Shown here one piece after another: positions 1,083 through 63,465 of a stretch of DNA of 64,000 nt. The notes beneath the pieces are model-generated. The model searched no databases. It had not been told where the DNA came from and saw only the letters and a list, made by a program, of their open reading frames with translations. The translations under genes and the position numbers were made by a program. The stretch lies in the NCBI GenBank assembly GCA_025061985.1, contig JANXAW010000023.1, positions 13,168 through 77,167 of the forward strand. Direction: 5' to 3'. The DNA is from Fimbriimonadales bacterium. Its GTDB lineage: Bacteria > Armatimonadota > Fimbriimonadia > Fimbriimonadales > GBS-DC. Each line of letters opens with the position of its first letter. Within the stretch, counting starts at the first letter, position 1.

Positions 1083-2752
1083 TTGCCCCCTATACGCGCC
1101 AATAGTTGAATATACCCCGCGTGAGCAAGCGGTTGACTGGGGTCATAGTCGCCTGCCACGGCTTGGGCGAGCTGGCGAGCGCGTTCACGCCAGTGCCCCT
1201 CGCCTGAAGCGTTGGCATACTCCCACATCGCCAGTGCCAGCAAAGCGTTATCTCCTGGAAGGGAGTCATCGCTGCCAACACGCACGGGGGCGACTCGAAG
1301 CGTGCCCCATTGCTCACTACGCGCGATGTCATAAAACCCTCCCGTTGGGTCGGCGTGTTCTTGCCAGATGTACTCCAGCAGCGAACGCGCCAGTTGAAGG
1401 GCGTTGGGATCGCGCGTAAGGTAATACACGCGCACGGCGGCGCGCACCGTTAGTGCCATGTCGGGGAGCCAATCGCGAGCGGCGCGTAAGGAGCTGTGGA
1501 ACAGGTCGCCATACCGCGTGCGCATAGCTACCAAGGTTTGAAGCACGCGCGGCGCGGTCTGTCGTGCCCAGTATGCTTGCGGGTCCAGTAATCCAAAGGT
1601 TTCTAGATAGTCTGCAAGTGCGATCACGGCGTAGGCGTTGGCGTCGGTGTAGAGCGCAAGGTCGCGCTGCGGAATGCCAGGCAGATGGGTAAGCACGGAT
1701 TGTAGCTTTGGTGAGGCTAAGGTTGCTATGAAGCCTGCGGGGCGCTCGCGATAGTAGCGAGTGCGCAAGGTATTGGCTAAAGCGTGGGCGATTTCGCCCA
1801 GCTCAGGCTCAAAGCGTGCGGCGCGGCTGTACAGGCTCAGCAAACGCGCTTGGTCAATCAATCGCTTGCCGCCGATGGGCTTGCCCTCAGGGTCTACGCC
1901 CTCTTCCACCGCGTGCACGGCTTGTGTTCGCAAGCACCAAAGTGGGCTATTCGGCAGCGACTGCAAGCGCGCACGTAGTATCCGCTGGGCACGCGCATCG
2001 CCCCGCTCGGCGATCGACAATAGCGCTTCCAACACGCTAAGGTTGTAGCTACTCTCAGGCGACAACTCCGCTGCTTGGAGGAACGCTTCTATGGCGCTCG
2101 GTTCTGGTATGGCGAAGCGCGCGGCACGCACCCAACGCGCGTTCCACGCTTGCTCTAGCTGTGTAGCCAGTTGCGCAACCTGCTCTGGGCGGTTGCGGAA
2201 GAGGTGGCTCAGCTCCTCTAGGTGGCGCATGAGTTCGGCGCGTGTGTCGGGCGCCACGGCGCGCACAGGCTTGCCATCGGGCGTGAACCATACCAAAACG
2301 GGATAGCGCGCAGGGTAGCCTTGCAATGCCGCCAACTGACGCGCATAGCGTGCTAGCTTAGGCATCGATTCGGCGTCCACCTTCGCCGCTATAAACTCGC
2401 GGTTGATAAGGTCTGCTACCCCCGAATCTGAGAACGCTTCGCGTCCTAACCGCTGGCAACGCCCTGACCAGTATGCCCCCACTTCCACTAAGACCAAGCG
2501 ATCGCGCCGTTGTGCCTGCTCAAATGCTTTTTGGAGTGAAGGCTGCCAGTTGACCAACTGGTACTGTCCGCTGCGTAGGTAAGCCTCAGAAGCATCCTTG
2601 AGTGCGTTGGGATGTTGCGCTCGTTCCAAGCTCCGCAGCAAGATACCTAGCCATGCCATCAGCACAATAAGCATACACACGCCGCTGAGCGCCGTAAGGC
2701 GTGGGGCATACCGCTCGACTACCGCGTGGTATTCGGGCGTAAGCCAGCTCAC
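1079..2752 (-). CDS. thioredoxin-fold DUF255/YyaL-like protein with N-terminal membrane anchor
   Basis: 557-aa ORF. It has an N-terminal TM helix (LSGVCMLIVLMAWLGILL). A thioredoxin-like block follows (RLVLVEVGAYWSGRCQRL...INREFIAAKVD...YPVLVWFTPDGKP), then a long alpha-helical repeat region typical of the six-hairpin part of this family. Confidence 0.6.
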   Translation of the reverse strand: MSWLTPEYHAVVERYAPRLTALSGVCMLIVLMAWLGILLRSLERAQHPNALKDASEAYLRSGQYQLVNWQPSLQKAFEQAQRRDRLVLVEVGAYWSGRCQRLGREAFSDSGVADLINREFIAAKVDAESMPKLARYARQLAALQGYPARYPVLVWFTPDGKPVRAVAPDTRAELMRHLEELSHLFRNRPEQVAQLATQLEQAWNARWVRAARFAIPEPSAIEAFLQAAELSPESSYNLSVLEALLSIAERGDARAQRILRARLQSLPNSPLWCLRTQAVHAVEEGVDPEGKPIGGKRLIDQARLLSLYSRAARFEPELGEIAHALANTLRTRYYRERPAGFIATLASPKLQSVLTHLPGIPQRDLALYTDANAYAVIALADYLETFGLLDPQAYWARQTAPRVLQTLVAMRTRYGDLFHSSLRAARDWLPDMALTVRAAVRVYYLTRDPNALQLARSLLEYIWQEHADPTGGFYDIARSEQWGTLRVAPVRVGSDDSLPGDNALLALAMWEYANASGEGHWRERARQLAQAVAGDYDPSQPLAHAGYIQLLARIGGK

Positions 2753-10531: not shown

Positions 10532-10548
10532 GTGTTGCAGCGATTGGG

Positions 10549-10554
10549 TATAAT
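10549..10554 (+). promoter_or_regulatory. -10 box TATAAT, 9 nt upstream of the mature 5' end of tRNA-Leu
   Basis: A perfect TATAAT in the 32-nt spacer between the GH127 stop and the tRNA. Confidence 0.5.
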
Positions 10555-10563
10555 ACAGGCGGG

Positions 10564-10652
10564 GCCGGAGTGGCGGAACTGGTAGACGCGCCGGTCTCAA
10601 AAATCGGTCTGGGGCGACCCAGGTGTGGGTTCGAGTCCCACCTCCGGCACCA
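10564..10652 (+). tRNA. tRNA-Leu (anticodon CAA), CCA encoded
   Basis: Acceptor stem GCCGGAG/CTCCGGC. Anticodon arm CCGGT-CTCAAAA-ATCGG gives anticodon CAA. A long variable arm (class II) and T-arm GGTTCGAGTCCCAC are present, followed by discriminator A and CCA. Confidence 0.9.
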
Positions 10653-40763: not shown

Positions 40764-40769
40764 AGTATA
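40764..40769 (-). promoter_or_regulatory. -10-like box TATACT, 9 nt upstream of the redoxin-heme-monooxygenase GTG
   Basis: A TAnnnT hexamer on the minus strand, with no SD. Confidence 0.4.
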
Positions 40770-40802
40770 CCCCTACGAGGAAACAAACCAAGTATGCCTT
40801 GA

Positions 40803-42808: not shown

Positions 42809-43440
42809 GGCCAGAGATGCAGGAGGCATGGAGCCTTATTCGCGAGCGCGTGAAGCAAAAGGTCAGCGGGCGCACGCTTTACCGCGCATTGGATGCGCTG
42901 CAGCTAGTCACGATAGAAGGCGAGACGGTTGTGCTAGGGCTGCCCCACGAGGAGTACTCGCTGGCAGGGCACCTCAACGCTCCAACGGTGCGTCGAGCGC
43001 TGGAAGAGTGCATTCAAGAAGCCTATGCTTTCCGCCCGCGACTGGTGATTATCGACGGCACCACGCTGCACGATTGGCACCTTTACCAGCGCAAGTTGGA
43101 GGAGTTGCGTCGGCTTAGCGAACAAGGCATTCGCCGACGCGAGGTAGAGTCGCGCGCGCTCGCAGATTGGGACGCAGTCTACGAGCAGGTAGGGCGCAAG
43201 TTTGCTGAGACACACGGACGTAGCCTCGCTATCAATCGTGCCCGCTACCTAAACGAGGCGCTAGCGCTTGTACGCGAGGCGATGCGACGCCTGCCCCTCG
43301 AAACAGACGCCGATGAGCGCCAGCTCAACCGCATCGTTGAGCGTATCGCGACACACGCCGAGGTGCCCTCAGCACTGGTCGCTTGGCTCCTCCTGTACGG
43401 TGCGCCTTCACACAGCCATGAATCCGATCAAGCGTCGTGA
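42805..43440 (+). CDS. hypothetical protein (N-terminal region loosely DnaA-domain-I-like)
   Basis: ATG 42805 (M29 of the track ORF) follows GGGAGG and overlaps the coaX stop (ATGA). I recognise no family with confidence. Confidence 0.45.
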   Translation: MRPEMQEAWSLIRERVKQKVSGRTLYRALDALQLVTIEGETVVLGLPHEEYSLAGHLNAPTVRRALEECIQEAYAFRPRLVIIDGTTLHDWHLYQRKLEELRRLSEQGIRRREVESRALADWDAVYEQVGRKFAETHGRSLAINRARYLNEALALVREAMRRLPLETDADERQLNRIVERIATHAEVPSALVAWLLLYGAPSHSHESDQAS

Positions 43441-44566
43441 GCGACTCCTGATTGGCATACTGGCGGTAGTTGCGATGGTGGGTGTGCTTGCGGTTATCCG
43501 CTCACAACCGTGGGGGCGGGTAGACCTGCGCCTGCTAAAACCCAATACCCTCAACTGGATTGTATGTGTCCGCCTCAACGAAGACGGCTATGGCGACTTG
43601 ATGATGCTGTTGCCCGACGGCAAAACGCTAATGCTCACCGAAGACCCTTATGATGACCGTGACCCCGACTGGGCGCCTGACGGCAAAAAGCTGGTGTTTT
43701 CGTCCAATCGGCGCGACAATGTGTACCAGTTGTGGACAATAGACCCTGATGGCAAGGGGCTGAGCCAGCTAACCATCGGCGGCGGCGCCAAATTCGCACC
43801 CTGCTATGATCGTGATGGCACGCACATCCTGCATGTCGCCCAAGGCTTAGTAACCGACATCGATGTGAAGGGTGTGCACGCCACGCAACTCATCCCTTTG
43901 CCTGCACAGATGGTGCAGGTGCGTGAAGTTTACGGCCAGGTTGCGTTTCGCTATGCCAAACGCCCCATCCCCACCCTCATTGCAGCTGTGCAGCGGACTG
44001 ACGAGGGCGAGCAAGCGGTTTTGCAAGACCTTTCTACCGCTCAGCAACAGTTTGTGCTGCCTGTGCTGCTGGCGGGCGAGCGGGTGGACTTAGATTGGTC
44101 GCCGCAGGGGCAAAGTTTGGTGGTTGCGGGCACAGGGCTACTCATCCCTACGCCCCAAGGTGAGCGGCGAACAGGAGGGGTCATTCGATTTGATCTCAAG
44201 GAGGGCACCCGCGAAGTTGAGCCAATCCCCCTTTGGCTATCGCCTGATAACACTCAAGGAGCGGTTGAGGTCGTCTGGTCGCCTGATGGATCGCGAGTTG
44301 CGTTTGTGCTGGTGGAGCGTCGGGCTGATGGCACGCTCAAGCGACTGGCGTTAGCTAGCGTGCCTGAGGATGGGGGTGAGCCGACAGTAATCGTGCGGGG
44401 CGAGATTTATCATCCCCACTGGTCGCCTGACGGGCAATACTTGGTATTCGCAAAGGGGAAGCCGGGCAACCGCCAGATTTACACGGTGCGTTACGATGGC
44501 GCGGAGCTAACTCAGCGTACCCAGGCGGGTGATCACATTACCCCTCGCTGGTCGCCAGCACGCTAA
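43418..44566 (+). CDS. membrane-anchored TolB-like beta-propeller (PD40/WD40-like repeat) protein
   Basis: Begins MNPIKRRERLLIGILAVVAMVGVLAV (anchor). PD40 repeats are DPDWAPDGKKLVFSS, VVWSPDGSRVAF, HPHWSPDGQYLVF and ITPRWSP. Confidence 0.7.
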   Translation: MNPIKRRERLLIGILAVVAMVGVLAVIRSQPWGRVDLRLLKPNTLNWIVCVRLNEDGYGDLMMLLPDGKTLMLTEDPYDDRDPDWAPDGKKLVFSSNRRDNVYQLWTIDPDGKGLSQLTIGGGAKFAPCYDRDGTHILHVAQGLVTDIDVKGVHATQLIPLPAQMVQVREVYGQVAFRYAKRPIPTLIAAVQRTDEGEQAVLQDLSTAQQQFVLPVLLAGERVDLDWSPQGQSLVVAGTGLLIPTPQGERRTGGVIRFDLKEGTREVEPIPLWLSPDNTQGAVEVVWSPDGSRVAFVLVERRADGTLKRLALASVPEDGGEPTVIVRGEIYHPHWSPDGQYLVFAKGKPGNRQIYTVRYDGAELTQRTQAGDHITPRWSPAR

Positions 44567-44853
44567 GAAGCGAGTTGCTCGCGTTCCAGCTGTGCTTGGG
44601 CTGCTTGAAGCACTGCTTCGGGAATAGGGGCATTGAGCGCGCGCTCTAGGCTTTTGCGCTTGCGAGCGAGCCGAAAACACTCGGCGTTGGGGCATAGATA
44701 GGCGCCCCGCCCTGGCAGACGCTGCGAAGGGTCAAACGCCACCTGACGGGTTTGGGGGTCACGAACGAAGCGGAGCAAGGTATGCTTGGGAGCGGTGCGC
44801 CGACATGCAGCGCACCGCCGAATTGGGCTATGCAGACTTTTCTTTTTCGGCAC
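44563..44853 (-). CDS. ylxR: YlxR/RnpM family RNA-binding protein (DUF448)
   Basis: Contains PIRRCAACRR..PKHTLLRFV...GRGAYLCPNAEC. The likely GTG start at 44853 (MPKKKSL) overlaps the nusA 3' end by 26 nt. The track ORF is extended to 44919. Confidence 0.8.
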   Translation of the reverse strand: MPKKKSLHSPIRRCAACRRTAPKHTLLRFVRDPQTRQVAFDPSQRLPGRGAYLCPNAECFRLARKRKSLERALNAPIPEAVLQAAQAQLEREQLAS

Positions 44854-45925
44854 GGGCGATCTCTTCCTCCGAGCGCACTTCCAGCTTCCACCCTGTGAGC
44901 TGCTCGGCAAGGCGCACATTCACGCCCCCGCGCCCTACGGCTTGGCGCAACTGATTGTTGGGCACCACAACCAGCGCGCTCTTATGCGCCTTATCTAAAA
45001 TCACCCGATTGACGCGCGCAGGGCTAAGTGCATCCCGAATGAACTGCGCAGGGTCACTACTCCACTCGATGATGTCAATATGTTCACCGAAAAGCTCGTT
45101 GCTGATCGCTTGGACGCGCATCCCACGCTGTCCTAAGCACGCGCCCACGGCATCAACAAGCGGGTTTTTGGAATGCACCGCAACTTTAGTGCGTTCGCCC
45201 GGCTCGCGCGCGATCGCTTTGATTTCCACGTCGCCGCTAGCGATCTCAGGCACCTCGTGTGCCAATAAGCGGGCAACCAGCTGGGGCTCCGTGCGTGAGG
45301 CGATTACCTTCATGTCGCGCAGGCGCGGTTCGCGTCCGCGCTCCGTAGGGGGAATGCGTACCTCCAACACCAGTACCTTGATCGGCTGTCCTATTTCATA
45401 GGTGTCGCGCGGGCTTTGGTGCTTCTCTGGCAGCAGAACATCGATGCGCCCGTACGAAAGTAGCACACGGGGTCCGATAAACCGCTCCACGCGCGCAGTA
45501 ATGATGTCGCCCACGCTGCGGTTTAGTTCGCGCAGGGCATGCTCACGCTCCAGTTCACGCAAGCGCTGCGTCAGCACCTGAAGCGCATTTTGCACCGCAA
45601 TCCGCCCGAACTCCTCAATAGAGGCTTCCATCCGCACTGTATCACCGACTTCCAGCGTAGGGTTGAGCCTACGCGCCTCCTCTAAGGCGATTTGCGTGGC
45701 TTCGTCGGTGACGATACCTACGACTTCCTTCTCAACGAAAATCTGAAAGCAGTGCGGCTTGTCTGGGGCGAACTTTGCGTACACACGCGCACTGGGAGGT
45801 AGGCGCATTTGCTTACGATAGGCGTTAGCAAATGCCCCTTCTAGCGTCGCCATAAGTTCATTAAGCGGGATGCCCCGCTCACGCTCCAACTGTTTCAACA
45901 CCTCAATGATTTCGTTGCAGTGCAT
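44828..45925 (-). CDS. nusA: transcription termination/antitermination factor NusA
   Basis: Has the N-terminal domain, S1 (GDIITARVERF) and two KH domains (GACLGQRGMRVQAISNEL, QAVGRGGVNVRLAEQLTGW). Confidence 0.95.
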   Translation of the reverse strand: MHCNEIIEVLKQLERERGIPLNELMATLEGAFANAYRKQMRLPPSARVYAKFAPDKPHCFQIFVEKEVVGIVTDEATQIALEEARRLNPTLEVGDTVRMEASIEEFGRIAVQNALQVLTQRLRELEREHALRELNRSVGDIITARVERFIGPRVLLSYGRIDVLLPEKHQSPRDTYEIGQPIKVLVLEVRIPPTERGREPRLRDMKVIASRTEPQLVARLLAHEVPEIASGDVEIKAIAREPGERTKVAVHSKNPLVDAVGACLGQRGMRVQAISNELFGEHIDIIEWSSDPAQFIRDALSPARVNRVILDKAHKSALVVVPNNQLRQAVGRGGVNVRLAEQLTGWKLEVRSEEEIARAEKEKSA

Positions 45926-45955
45926 TGCGCTTACCCCCTTTGGGGCACTTGCGGT

Positions 45956-45989
45956 ATAAAGAAAAGAGTGGGCGTATACACCCCACTCT
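45956..45989 (-). terminator. intrinsic-terminator-like hairpin plus U-tract inside the nusA 5' leader (putative attenuator)
   Basis: The minus-strand RNA reads AGAGUGGG-GUGUAUACG-CCCACUCU, an 8-bp stem (five G-C pairs) with a 9-nt loop, followed directly by UUUCUUUAU. It lies between a TATACT box (46015-46020) and the nusA SD/AUG (45925). Confidence 0.5.
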
Positions 45990-46014
45990 CTTCCCGCCCT
46001 TGCCGCCCGCCCAT

Positions 46015-46020
46015 AGTATA
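46015..46020 (-). promoter_or_regulatory. -10-like box TATACT for the nusA leader transcript
   Basis: Lies about 90 nt upstream of the nusA AUG and upstream of the leader hairpin. The inverted repeat GTCGAG-ac-CTCGAC (46025-46038) sits just beyond it, in the divergent region. Confidence 0.35.
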
Positions 46021-46074
46021 CCCCGTCGAGACCTCGACAGGAAATCCTAAAGCTCGGGGCGTACTTAAGCGCGG

Positions 46075-47151
46075 GTGACTCGAATGTATCGCAAGAGGCT
46101 TTTTTGGGGCATTCTCTTGATCAACAGCGTCGTCATATCAGCAACATTTGCACAGGTAGGCATGCGAAGCTACGTCGTGCGCAAGTTATATGAACCCGGT
46201 CAGAAGCAACGATTCAATGCCGTCTACTCGTTGCGAGGCGATGTACGCTCCTCGACCTTTGAGCAGAGCATGCCCATTGCGGTGGATGCGCAGCTGCGTT
46301 TTGACACAGAGGTGCTTCAAGTGCTGGAAAACGGGCAGGCGCGGATGCGCGTCTCCACCCGCTACGTCAAGCAGGTGATCGACTACTTTGCTGAGACTGA
46401 GTTGCCTCCGCCCTACACAGAGATTGTGCGCGTAACGCCTTCGGGCTTCCCCAGCGAGGATGACGCCGAACGGCTGGTCAAGCGCGTCAAGCGCAGCGAA
46501 AAAAAAGAAGACCAGCAAGAGCAGACAGAAGAGGAGGCTCCCGAGCTGGATTTTCTGTTGCCCCCGTCTTTCTTCCTGCAAATGATCGGGCTGAGCATCG
46601 TGCCTGGTCCGTTCGGGCCATTTCCCCAGCAAGCTGTGCGTGAGGGTGATGAGTGGCAAGTGCGCTATCCCACGCCGTTTATCGATACGCGCGGTGGCAA
46701 ACTCTCGCTGGAGCAGGCGACGGTTTACACCTACCCCGTTACGGTGCGTGTCATCGGCGCTAAAGAGATCAACGGGCGCCCCGTGCTGCACGTGAAGCTC
46801 ATCACCGACACTGAAATTGACATTCGCCTAGATGATTTTCTGCTTGCGATTACGCGCTTGCGCGACCGTAATGTCCCGCGGGGCACGCTAAAGGGCACCA
46901 TCAAGGGCGAAATAGACTACTATTTTGCCTTGTCAGATGGTGCATTGGTTCAGGCGTCGGGCTACGAGAAACTCAAGCTGCGCGCAGAGTATGACCCGCA
47001 AACCGTTCGCGAGTGGGAGCCTGAAGAAGCGTGGGCGGAGTGGGAAGCGCAAGCGACCTTCCGTCAGGTGCTAGCAGAGGAGCGTATCGCTCCTAAGCCT
47101 CAGCGCCCTACACGCGCCAACCCACGCTCTACACCTAGCCGACGCCGCTAA
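46075..47151 (+). CDS. hypothetical secreted protein
   Basis: Signal peptide is LFWGILLINSVVISATFAQ. There is a central acidic/Lys-rich linker (KRSEKKEDQQEQTEEEAPE). The GTG 46075 lies 7 nt after TACTTA; ATG 46084 is an alternative start. Confidence 0.5.
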   Translation: MTRMYRKRLFWGILLINSVVISATFAQVGMRSYVVRKLYEPGQKQRFNAVYSLRGDVRSSTFEQSMPIAVDAQLRFDTEVLQVLENGQARMRVSTRYVKQVIDYFAETELPPPYTEIVRVTPSGFPSEDDAERLVKRVKRSEKKEDQQEQTEEEAPELDFLLPPSFFLQMIGLSIVPGPFGPFPQQAVREGDEWQVRYPTPFIDTRGGKLSLEQATVYTYPVTVRVIGAKEINGRPVLHVKLITDTEIDIRLDDFLLAITRLRDRNVPRGTLKGTIKGEIDYYFALSDGALVQASGYEKLKLRAEYDPQTVREWEPEEAWAEWEAQATFRQVLAEERIAPKPQRPTRANPRSTPSRRR

Positions 47152-53413: not shown

Positions 53414-53457
53414 TACGACCTCCTATGATGGCGAGAGTGCAGGAGAGATTATACCCG

Positions 53458-63405: not shown

Positions 63406-63459
63406 TGTCGCCTCCGAGATGATTGTACCCCATCGTAAGCGTGATTCCTGCAGGTGGGG

Positions 63460-63465
63460 TATAAT
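63460..63465 (+). promoter_or_regulatory. -10 box TATAAT, 9 nt upstream of GTG 63475
   Basis: A perfect hexamer. The divergent TACAAT (63422-63427, minus strand) plus GGAGG serve the five-gene tatC-containing unit. Confidence 0.45.

Follow-up and report, generated by a model that had tools for sequence, protein, structure and literature searches.

We find that the nusA leader in the window, the whole 64-kb stretch of DNA analysed here, carries an element that by its sequence is a member of the rimP-leader family, a published family of transcription attenuators found across phyla. We consider it likely that this element acts as a premature terminator of the rimP-leader type placed directly before nusA, where termination stimulated by NusA would produce negative feedback. 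The family itself and the accepted working model of NusA feedback are already known, and our finding is essentially explained by them. What is new is modest: a member in Armatimonadota, a phylum absent from the accessible lists of the 2010 survey (Naville & Gautheret 2010); the direct joining of a rimP-leader to nusA without rimP; a predicted clade-specific pairing (P1) between the 5' end and the pre-SD segment; and a small hairpin predicted to sequester the SD.

The genes at the locus are as follows:

44828-45925, minus strand: nusA, 365 aa (Pfam NusA_N 2.9e-31 and KH_5 5.8e-29)
44563-44919, minus strand: ylxR (DUF448; Pfam YlxR 1.1e-26, match beginning at residue 34)
43268-44566, plus strand: PD40 beta-propeller repeat gene, convergent, next after ylxR
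46162-47151, plus strand: divergent neighbour, a conserved hypothetical with no Pfam domain

The nusA start codon is the ATG at 45925 on the minus strand. The encoded protein is 73-94% identical to NusA of Fimbriimonadales/Armatimonadota (22 genomes), which places the window in this clade. The operon consists of nusA and ylxR only, with ylxR second and last, and its real start probably later than 44919; since the gene that follows it is convergent, infB lies outside the nusA operon. On the other side, the divergent neighbour probably starts at the ATG at 46162. The protein it encodes is 78-89% identical in relatives, whereas the antisense frame reaches only about 50%, and on this conservation we take the neighbour to be a real gene; a Pfam search with its protein gave no match. 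These identities bear out the initial annotation, which had described the neighbour as divergent and had seen no gene end at the hairpin. Its observation that rimP is missing before nusA also held: tblastn with five RimP proteins found none upstream of nusA or elsewhere in the 64-kb window (best E = 0.9). The weak matches near 16.3 kb fall within a rhomboid/TPR protein and were rejected as a RimP candidate. The genome may carry a rimP gene outside the window. The annotation had further taken about 90 nt as the entire upstream region, which is right for the leader below the -10 box (about 83-90 nt) and wrong for the intergenic region between nusA and the divergent gene (about 236 nt).

Read along the minus strand, the leader runs from GGGTATACT (46023-46015) through ATGGGCGGGCGGCAAGGGCGGGAAG, the hairpin, the U tract, ACCGCAAGTG, CCCC-AAA-GGGGG and TAAGCGCA to the nusA ATG. 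Its elements, all on the minus strand, are:

46015-46023, minus strand: -10 element GGGTATACT (TATACT at 46020-46015), conserved among Armatimonadota leaders
46006-46010, minus strand: predicted transcription start, about 46008, from the usual -10 to +1 distance
45993-46008, minus strand: putative P1 5' strand from duplex energy (GG 46007-46006, GGCA 46004-46001, GCGG 45997-45994)
45990-45995, minus strand: A/G-rich tract GGGAAG, which can pair with the U tract and lengthen the stem
45982-45989, minus strand: hairpin 5' arm AGAGUGGG (DNA AGAGTGGG), read from the sequence and the fold
45973-45981, minus strand: loop GUGUAUACG (DNA GTGTATACG), 9 nt, read from the sequence
45965-45972, minus strand: hairpin 3' arm CCCACUCU (DNA CCCACTCT), read from the sequence and the fold
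45956-45964, minus strand: U tract UUUCUUUAU (DNA TTTCTTTAT), 7 of 9 positions U, interrupted by C at 45961
45958-45992, minus strand: match to covariance model R1 (28.5 bits, E = 4e-4, full model length)
45941-45955, minus strand: putative P1 3' strand from duplex energy (CCGC 45954-45951, UGCC 45947-45944, CC 45943-45942)
45932-45947, minus strand: small hairpin UGCCCC-AAAG-GGGGUA over the SD GGGGG (45938-45934), from the fold

The hairpin with its 9-nt loop and U tract is present base for base where the initial annotation had reported it. So are the TATACT box, which proved to be conserved among Armatimonadota leaders, and the CCCC-AAA-GGGG hairpin overlapping the SD, which folds as UGCCCC/GGGGUA.

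Folding of the leader, a check that the same annotation had suggested, gave a stable terminator hairpin of -13.4 kcal/mol for the core. When the A/G tract pairs with the U tract and so lengthens the stem, the stability rises to -21.8 kcal/mol (z = -5.8 against shuffles), and the fold of 45955-45996 has 14 outer pairs with a further 2 pairs within the loop. The RNAalifold consensus of the Armatimonadota leaders shows a stem extended in the same way. For nascent RNA reaching from the predicted start as far as the U tract, the terminator hairpin is the only fold, and on these grounds we rejected an antiterminator built from the G-rich 5' segment. The predicted transcript arrives at the hairpin and U tract after about 20 nt, and a 30-nt gap separates the end of the U tract (45956) from the nusA ATG. 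The element thus has the shape of a Rho-independent terminator within the nusA 5' leader, downstream of a conserved putative promoter.

The bare hairpin pattern, at one per 64 kb, does not exceed chance. A strict terminator scan of the window returned the hairpin locus only, in 4 overlapping registers (shuffled windows gave 0-4), and a loose scan listed it among 4 sites in 3 kb where 3.0 are expected. Its significance comes instead from the fold z-scores, the conservation and the match to the family model.

The -10 box, hairpin, U tract and SD are kept in all 21 Fimbriimonadales/Armatimonadota genomes with upstream DNA. The relatives share a layout of GGGTATACT, 6-7 variable nt, a G-rich 5' segment, (A/G)G(A/G)GTGGG, a loop of 5-13 nt, CCCACTCTTTTCTTTA, a C-rich segment, AAGGGGGTA and ATG. 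We aligned 25 unique Armatimonadota leaders from 34 collected: GAGUGGG occurs in 24 of them, with GGGUGGG in the other (L021), the 3' arm CCCACTC is invariant, and CTCTTTTCTTTA is conserved in the U-tract region. Because the stem never varies in this clade, the clade itself provides no covariation. Both the upstream DNA and the gene upstream of nusA differ between groups of relatives, which indicates that the leader belongs to nusA. Metagenome contigs searched with the exact pattern GAGTGGG-N3-16-CCCACTCTTTTCTTTA yielded 41 loci, about 30 of them further Armatimonadota-type nusA leaders; all but 3 of the 41 were nusA/rimP loci or truncated contigs with leader sequence of those types. The hairpin and U tract that the initial annotation had proposed to look for upstream of nusA in related genomes are therefore found in 21 of 21 genomes and in some 30 metagenome contigs.

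In its published description, the rimP-leader is a conserved terminator of short length in which an unusual GGGc...gCCC stem is followed by a U stretch; it lies 4-130 nt from the gene start and lacks an antiterminator (Naville & Gautheret 2010, Genome Biol 11:R97, PMC2965389). Published examples are AAAAGAGTGGGTTCCTGCCCACTCTTTT in Moorella and AGAAGAGTGGGAGATTCCCGCTCTTTTCT in S. aureus; in the longer form of the lists they read AAAAGAGTGGGTTCCTGCCCACTCTTTTATGTT for Moorella, AGAAAGAGTGGGTTTTCCCACTCTTTCTTGTT for Carboxydothermus, AGAAGAGTGGGAGATTCCCGCTCTTTTCTATT for S. aureus and GAGAGTGGG...CCCGCTCTTTTTT for Bradyrhizobium (PMC2965389), beside which we set the window sequence, GAAGAGAGTGGGGTGTATACGCCCACTCTTTTCTTTAT. 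The stem and U tract of the window, AAGAGUGGG...CCCACUCUUUUCU, match the published rimP-leader of Clostridia, Bacilli and Alphaproteobacteria, and the window arms AGAGUGGGG...GCCCACUCU fit the consensus AAGAGTGGGC...GCCCACTCTTTT drawn from 49 published members. Even the interrupted U tract has its counterpart in the S. aureus leader (CTCTTTTCTATTT). Like the family, the window element combines a 5'-leader position, a GGG(c)...(g)CCC core and a U stretch with the lack of any antiterminator or aptamer-like element, and it scores with the family model.

That model, R1, was built from an alignment (A1) of 49 trimmed published non-gammaproteobacterial leaders, none of them from Armatimonadota. In the A1 stem, 8 of 10 pairs show compensatory changes, and 91.6% of cells are paired, compared with 37-65% in slid registers. 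With filters off, R1 gave a single forward-strand match in the 64-kb window, the nusA-leader hairpin; its one further match there (12.2 bits, E = 2) comes from that hairpin read as its reverse complement. Over 496 kb of NusA loci from many phyla (L001-L080), R1 produced 53 matches at E <= 1, a count that includes reverse-complement matches to the same hairpins, with one site per locus. The sites lie 30-80 nt upstream of nusA where rimP is missing and 520-650 nt upstream where rimP lies between, and Pfam confirms RimP at L023 and L056. Outside the phylum, the exact-pattern search of metagenome contigs located the identical hairpin sequence directly before a NusA only 33% identical (L084, L099) and also before rimP-nusA in AT-rich organisms (L092, L114). 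With a loose regular expression run over more distant NusA loci, the hairpin also turned up in Bacillota, Christensenella, Clostridia, Ruthenibacterium, Petrotogales and Krumholzibacteriota.

Together, the match to the published stem and the match to R1 indicate the same device as in Firmicutes and not an independent invention. The initial annotation had called the element analogous to known leaders and unrelated to them in sequence; the published stem and U tract and the R1 score overturn that view. Its reading of the element as an attenuator gains support from the terminator shape in the leader, the conservation and the placement in a published attenuator family. Rfam searches of the whole window, of 701 nt and of 86 nt gave no relevant match, either at the gathering threshold or at E <= 10, and those of 20 related loci gave none at the gathering threshold; the explanation is that RF01770 covers the rimP leader of Gammaproteobacteria only. 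No Rfam riboswitch, T-box or ribosomal-protein leader matched in the window. The Rfam searches gave only chance microRNA-like hairpin matches.

Immediately beyond the promoter, the two arms also make up a perfect inverted repeat of 8 bp, as would a DNA operator for a dimeric repressor, and CUCUUU resembles the core of the BoxA sequence GYTCTTTAANA, which would make the site a target of NusB/NusE. We consider both proposals extremely improbable. The arms are separated by anywhere from 5 to 13 nt in relatives, and a loop that varies in both length and sequence between two fixed arms argues for an RNA hairpin and against a DNA operator of fixed spacing. Moreover, one of the stem pairs is U.G in 18 of the 49 published family members, as suits an RNA helix but not a DNA palindrome. 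As for BoxA, the window sequence CACTCTTTTCT leaves G1 and the AA positions of GYTCTTTAANA unmatched, and a BoxA study placed BoxA upstream of suhB, nusE and nusB, not nusA.

Upstream of the hairpin, the -10 element GGGTATACT is invariant among the 25 aligned leaders except for AGG in one, and the DNA upstream of it differs from clade to clade. In relatives, TATACT is followed by 6-7 variable nt and then by a conserved GGGCGG block. With at most one mismatch, GGGTATACT occurs at 19 sites in the window against 5.4 expected, and such copies closely precede the tRNA at 10564 and SD-bearing ORFs. No consensus -35 box was found near the nusA -10 element, and none at a fixed spacing among relatives. 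We considered and rejected a further promoter lying between terminator and ATG, as the candidate TATACC (45958-45953) shows no conservation and has neither the final T nor the GGG. We also rejected a leader peptide starting at ATG 46013, a 27-codon ORF running through the hairpin: the ATG would sit 2 nt from the -10 box, and relatives have CACGGG, AGCGGG or other sequences in its place.

Downstream of the terminator, the read-through leader is predicted to pair 4 of the 5 SD G residues in the small hairpin with a probability of 0.80-0.97, the first G, in the loop, having a value of 0.02. This CCCC-(U/C)AAA-GGGG hairpin is kept in most relatives and is weak or absent in L017/L022/L120 and in L018-type leaders. 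The putative P1 pairing is the best duplex between the two segments in the window, at -18.5 kcal/mol (z = -3.0 against shuffles). Across 14 representatives, the cognate duplex has -11 to -23.5 kcal/mol (z from -2.2 to -4.4 against shuffles), and it outscored permuted partners in 20,000 of 20,000 permutations, a result inflated by sequence relatedness. The P1 helices differ by subclade and nevertheless stay complementary, for instance GGGCACAUGG/CCGUGUGUCC in L082, or CGCAGC/GCUGCG in L018 versus UGCAGC/GCUGCA in L081. RNAalifold on a MAFFT alignment of the Armatimonadota leaders recovered the terminator and not P1, since the subclades align in different registers; P1 accordingly stands on the duplex-energy tests. 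Its 3' strand overlaps the anti-SD CCCC that otherwise pairs with the SD. As this strand is made only after the terminator has been read through, P1 cannot be an antiterminator, and its role, whether in translation control or in 5'-end protection, is a matter of speculation.

A leader of this design might alternatively be the gene for a trans-acting small RNA of about 50 nt, with nusA expressed by read-through only. The homologous S. agalactiae leader does give a short RNA form (PMC4448216). We nonetheless think a small RNA gene highly improbable: conservation is confined to the hairpin, the roughly 20 nt before it varying between subclades; the 5' segment keeps its complementarity to the pre-SD segment of its own leader, pointing to a role in cis; and no nusA promoter is apparent downstream of the terminator.

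We return to NusA-responsive premature termination as the likely working of the leader. RNA polymerase would start about 7 nt past the -10 box GGGTATACT, near 46008, and after about 20 nt would transcribe the hairpin AGAGUGGG/CCCACUCU and the tract UUUCUUUAU. A fraction of complexes would release an RNA of about 50 nt, with predicted 3' ends at about 45956-45962. By homology, polymerase-bound NusA would promote hairpin folding and pausing, so that a rise in NusA would raise termination and lower nusA-ylxR mRNA, giving negative feedback. Since the leader offers no alternative antiterminator structure, the switch should depend on a protein factor. Transcripts that read through could hide the SD in the CCCC/GGGG hairpin, and those of most relatives could also pair their 5' end with the pre-SD segment. 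The SD hairpin and P1 may thus form a second layer, acting on translation or on stability.

A terminator in this position might also act without any feedback, as a constitutive dampener that ends a fixed fraction of transcripts at any NusA level and so combines a strong promoter with low nusA expression. The stem is strong, with 8 pairs and up to 14 when extended (-13.4 and -21.8 kcal/mol, respectively), and may terminate well without NusA; the nascent RNA has no alternative structure; and only 12% of intrinsic terminators in B. subtilis are independent of both NusA and NusG, so that dependence must be measured and not read from sequence. On balance we hold constitutive dampening to be unlikely. 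It needs no shared stem sequence across Clostridia, Bacilli, Alphaproteobacteria and Armatimonadota, it does not account for a motif specific to nusA operons, and NusA feedback is reported for homologous leaders (PMC12288461, PMC4448216).

If a protein does read the stem, the 2010 survey proposed NusA as the likely sensor and RimP as an alternative (Naville & Gautheret 2010, PMC2965389). RimP, a ribosomal protein or another RNA-binding factor would fit a stem whose sequence is conserved beyond what pairing needs. The rimP-less loci count against RimP: the motif sits directly on nusA without rimP in Armatimonadota, in Christensenella/Clostridia (L024/L025) and in L084/L099, and the 64-kb window contains no rimP. 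In these three contexts the motif follows nusA and not rimP, and we judge a sensor other than NusA to be improbable. That the motif tracks nusA when nusA and rimP separate favours NusA as the sensor.

An identical stem on nusA in three lineages without rimP at the locus further raises the idea that GAGUGGG/CCCACUC could be a recognition site for NusA itself. We put forward, as a tentative and rather doubtful extension, that Armatimonadota have a two-layer leader, in which P1 competes with the SD-hiding CCCC/GGGG hairpin, and that GAGUGGG/CCCACUC serves as a specific site for the S1 and KH domains of NusA and not for RimP. If true, recognition of the stem by NusA would settle the sensor question left open in 2010.

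Among known transcription attenuators the rimP-leader is the most widespread, and its range now takes in a phylum that has been little studied. From phylum to phylum the stem sequence is nearly constant, at NusA identities of only about 33-40%, and in the window it forms the only canonical intrinsic terminator in 64 kb by the strict scan, which together suggest strong selection. In the rimP-leader the sequence is conserved as well as the shape.

Among known systems, feedback by NusA on its own operon has a cited precedent in E. coli. The leader of metY-rimP-nusA-infB (RF01770) shares with ours the model of NusA-mediated feedback and, in its last terminator, a GGGC...GCCC stem followed by a U run. 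It differs in having tandem terminators, a potential antiterminator and an upstream tRNA gene, and its stem, CTGGGC...GCCC, lacks GAGU/ACUC; RF01770 itself did not match the window, either at the gathering threshold or at E <= 10, and a search of only 86 nt did not change this. In the 5' UTR of S. agalactiae gbs0413 (rimP-nusA-infB), two RNAs, one short and one long, begin at the same start site, and termination occurs 31 nt further on (PMC4448216). The geometry is the same, as the terminator here is likewise predicted to begin some tens of nt past the start site; the streptococcal case is backed by RNA-seq and ours is a prediction from sequence, and the streptococcal stems are of the GGGGCGG/GAGGCGG type.

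In B. subtilis, the nusA (ylxS/rimP) leader contains an intrinsic terminator at which NusA-stimulated termination brings about autoregulation (Mondal et al. 2016, as summarised in PMC12288461). Both leaders have an intrinsic terminator in the 5' leader and serve a short NusA without AR domains (365 aa here); NusA dependence is demonstrated in B. subtilis, where rimP is present, and predicted by homology here. Bacillus leaders (the Gka and Bli entries) carry a second, gene-proximal terminator in the 2010 lists (Naville & Gautheret 2010, PMC2965389), and the NusA-dependent terminator of B. subtilis could be either the conserved-motif hairpin or this second one. The closest counterpart is the rimP-leader itself (Naville & Gautheret 2010, PMC2965389), with which the window element shares the stem and U tract AAGAGUGGG-loop-CCCACUCUUUU, a place in the 5' leader of the nusA operon, and the lack of an antiterminator. 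In contrast to the published leaders, the first gene here is nusA and not rimP, since rimP is missing from the locus in this lineage; the operon ends without infB; and the leader adds the predicted P1 pairing and the SD hairpin.

Applying strict criteria to both strands of the whole window (a fully paired stem that is 6 bp or longer and includes 4 or more G-C pairs, then at least 6 T in 8), we found that the nusA leader hairpin is the sole canonical intrinsic terminator in 64 kb. Shuffled sequence contains about as many strict-criteria terminators as the real window, and textbook terminators are apparently not used at gene ends in this genome.

The hairpin precedes an operon that consists of nusA and ylxR alone, with the following features around it:

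44563-45925, minus strand: nusA-ylxR operon
43268-44566, plus strand: gene for a PD40 beta-propeller protein, convergent with the operon
46162-47151, plus strand: divergent neighbour of nusA, encoding 329 aa
46021-46040, minus strand: second inverted repeat, CCTGTCGAG-GT-CTCGACGGGG, directly upstream of the nusA -10 box and touching it

In most bacteria, infB and rbfA lie downstream of nusA; here, unlike in most bacteria, they do not, since the PD40 gene adjoins ylxR. The longest ylxR ORF overlaps the 3' end of nusA by 92 nt, and its Pfam match begins at residue 34, so the true ylxR start is probably later. The divergent neighbour is conserved at 78-89% beside nusA in many relatives, though not all. 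We found no Pfam domain in its protein, whose middle part is acidic and of low complexity and whose C-terminal tail is basic. The inverted repeat abutting the -10 box is not conserved among the relatives compared, and is therefore probably incidental or a local operator.

The element GGGTAYAMT, a -10 box with GGG directly ahead, is enriched in the window, with 19 sites versus 5.4 expected when up to one mismatch is allowed. Copies include:

10546-10554, plus strand
63457-63465, plus strand
1109-1117, minus strand
40764-40772, minus strand
53448-53456, minus strand

One copy lies 9 nt upstream of a tRNA gene at 10564, and others lie 25-35 nt upstream of ORFs with a Shine-Dalgarno sequence. No clear -35 element was seen with the sites of the window. 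Overall, GGGTAYAMT appears to be this lineage's housekeeping -10 element.

An identical hairpin is found about 18-20 nt ahead of nusA at three loci of a GC-rich lineage whose NusA is 33% identical (L084:1420-1449, L099:389-418 and L108:2744-2773). At these loci the upstream gene runs in the same direction as nusA, and the hairpin also lies about 40 nt past the stop codon of that gene; it could serve there both as the gene's terminator and as nusA attenuator. Christensenella and related Clostridia also carry the leader hairpin, TTATGAGTGGG...CCCACTCATAA, directly ahead of nusA and without rimP (L024:2940-2971, L025:2943-2963), followed by CTTTTAATTT instead of an immediate U run. The exact 23-base hairpin pattern also occurs on three AT-rich metagenome contigs (L104:2353-2389, L105:11138-11165 and L119:1079-1108), where neither nusA nor rimP is close by. 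Each of these sites lies a short distance past the end of another gene; they are either displaced copies or ordinary terminators that arrived at this sequence by convergence.

The leader U tract of the window contains TTCTTT (45959-45964, minus strand). This fits TTNTTT, the non-template motif that PMC8060035 reports for terminators of B. subtilis at which pausing depends on NusG, and S. aureus rimP-leaders have a similarly interrupted U tract.
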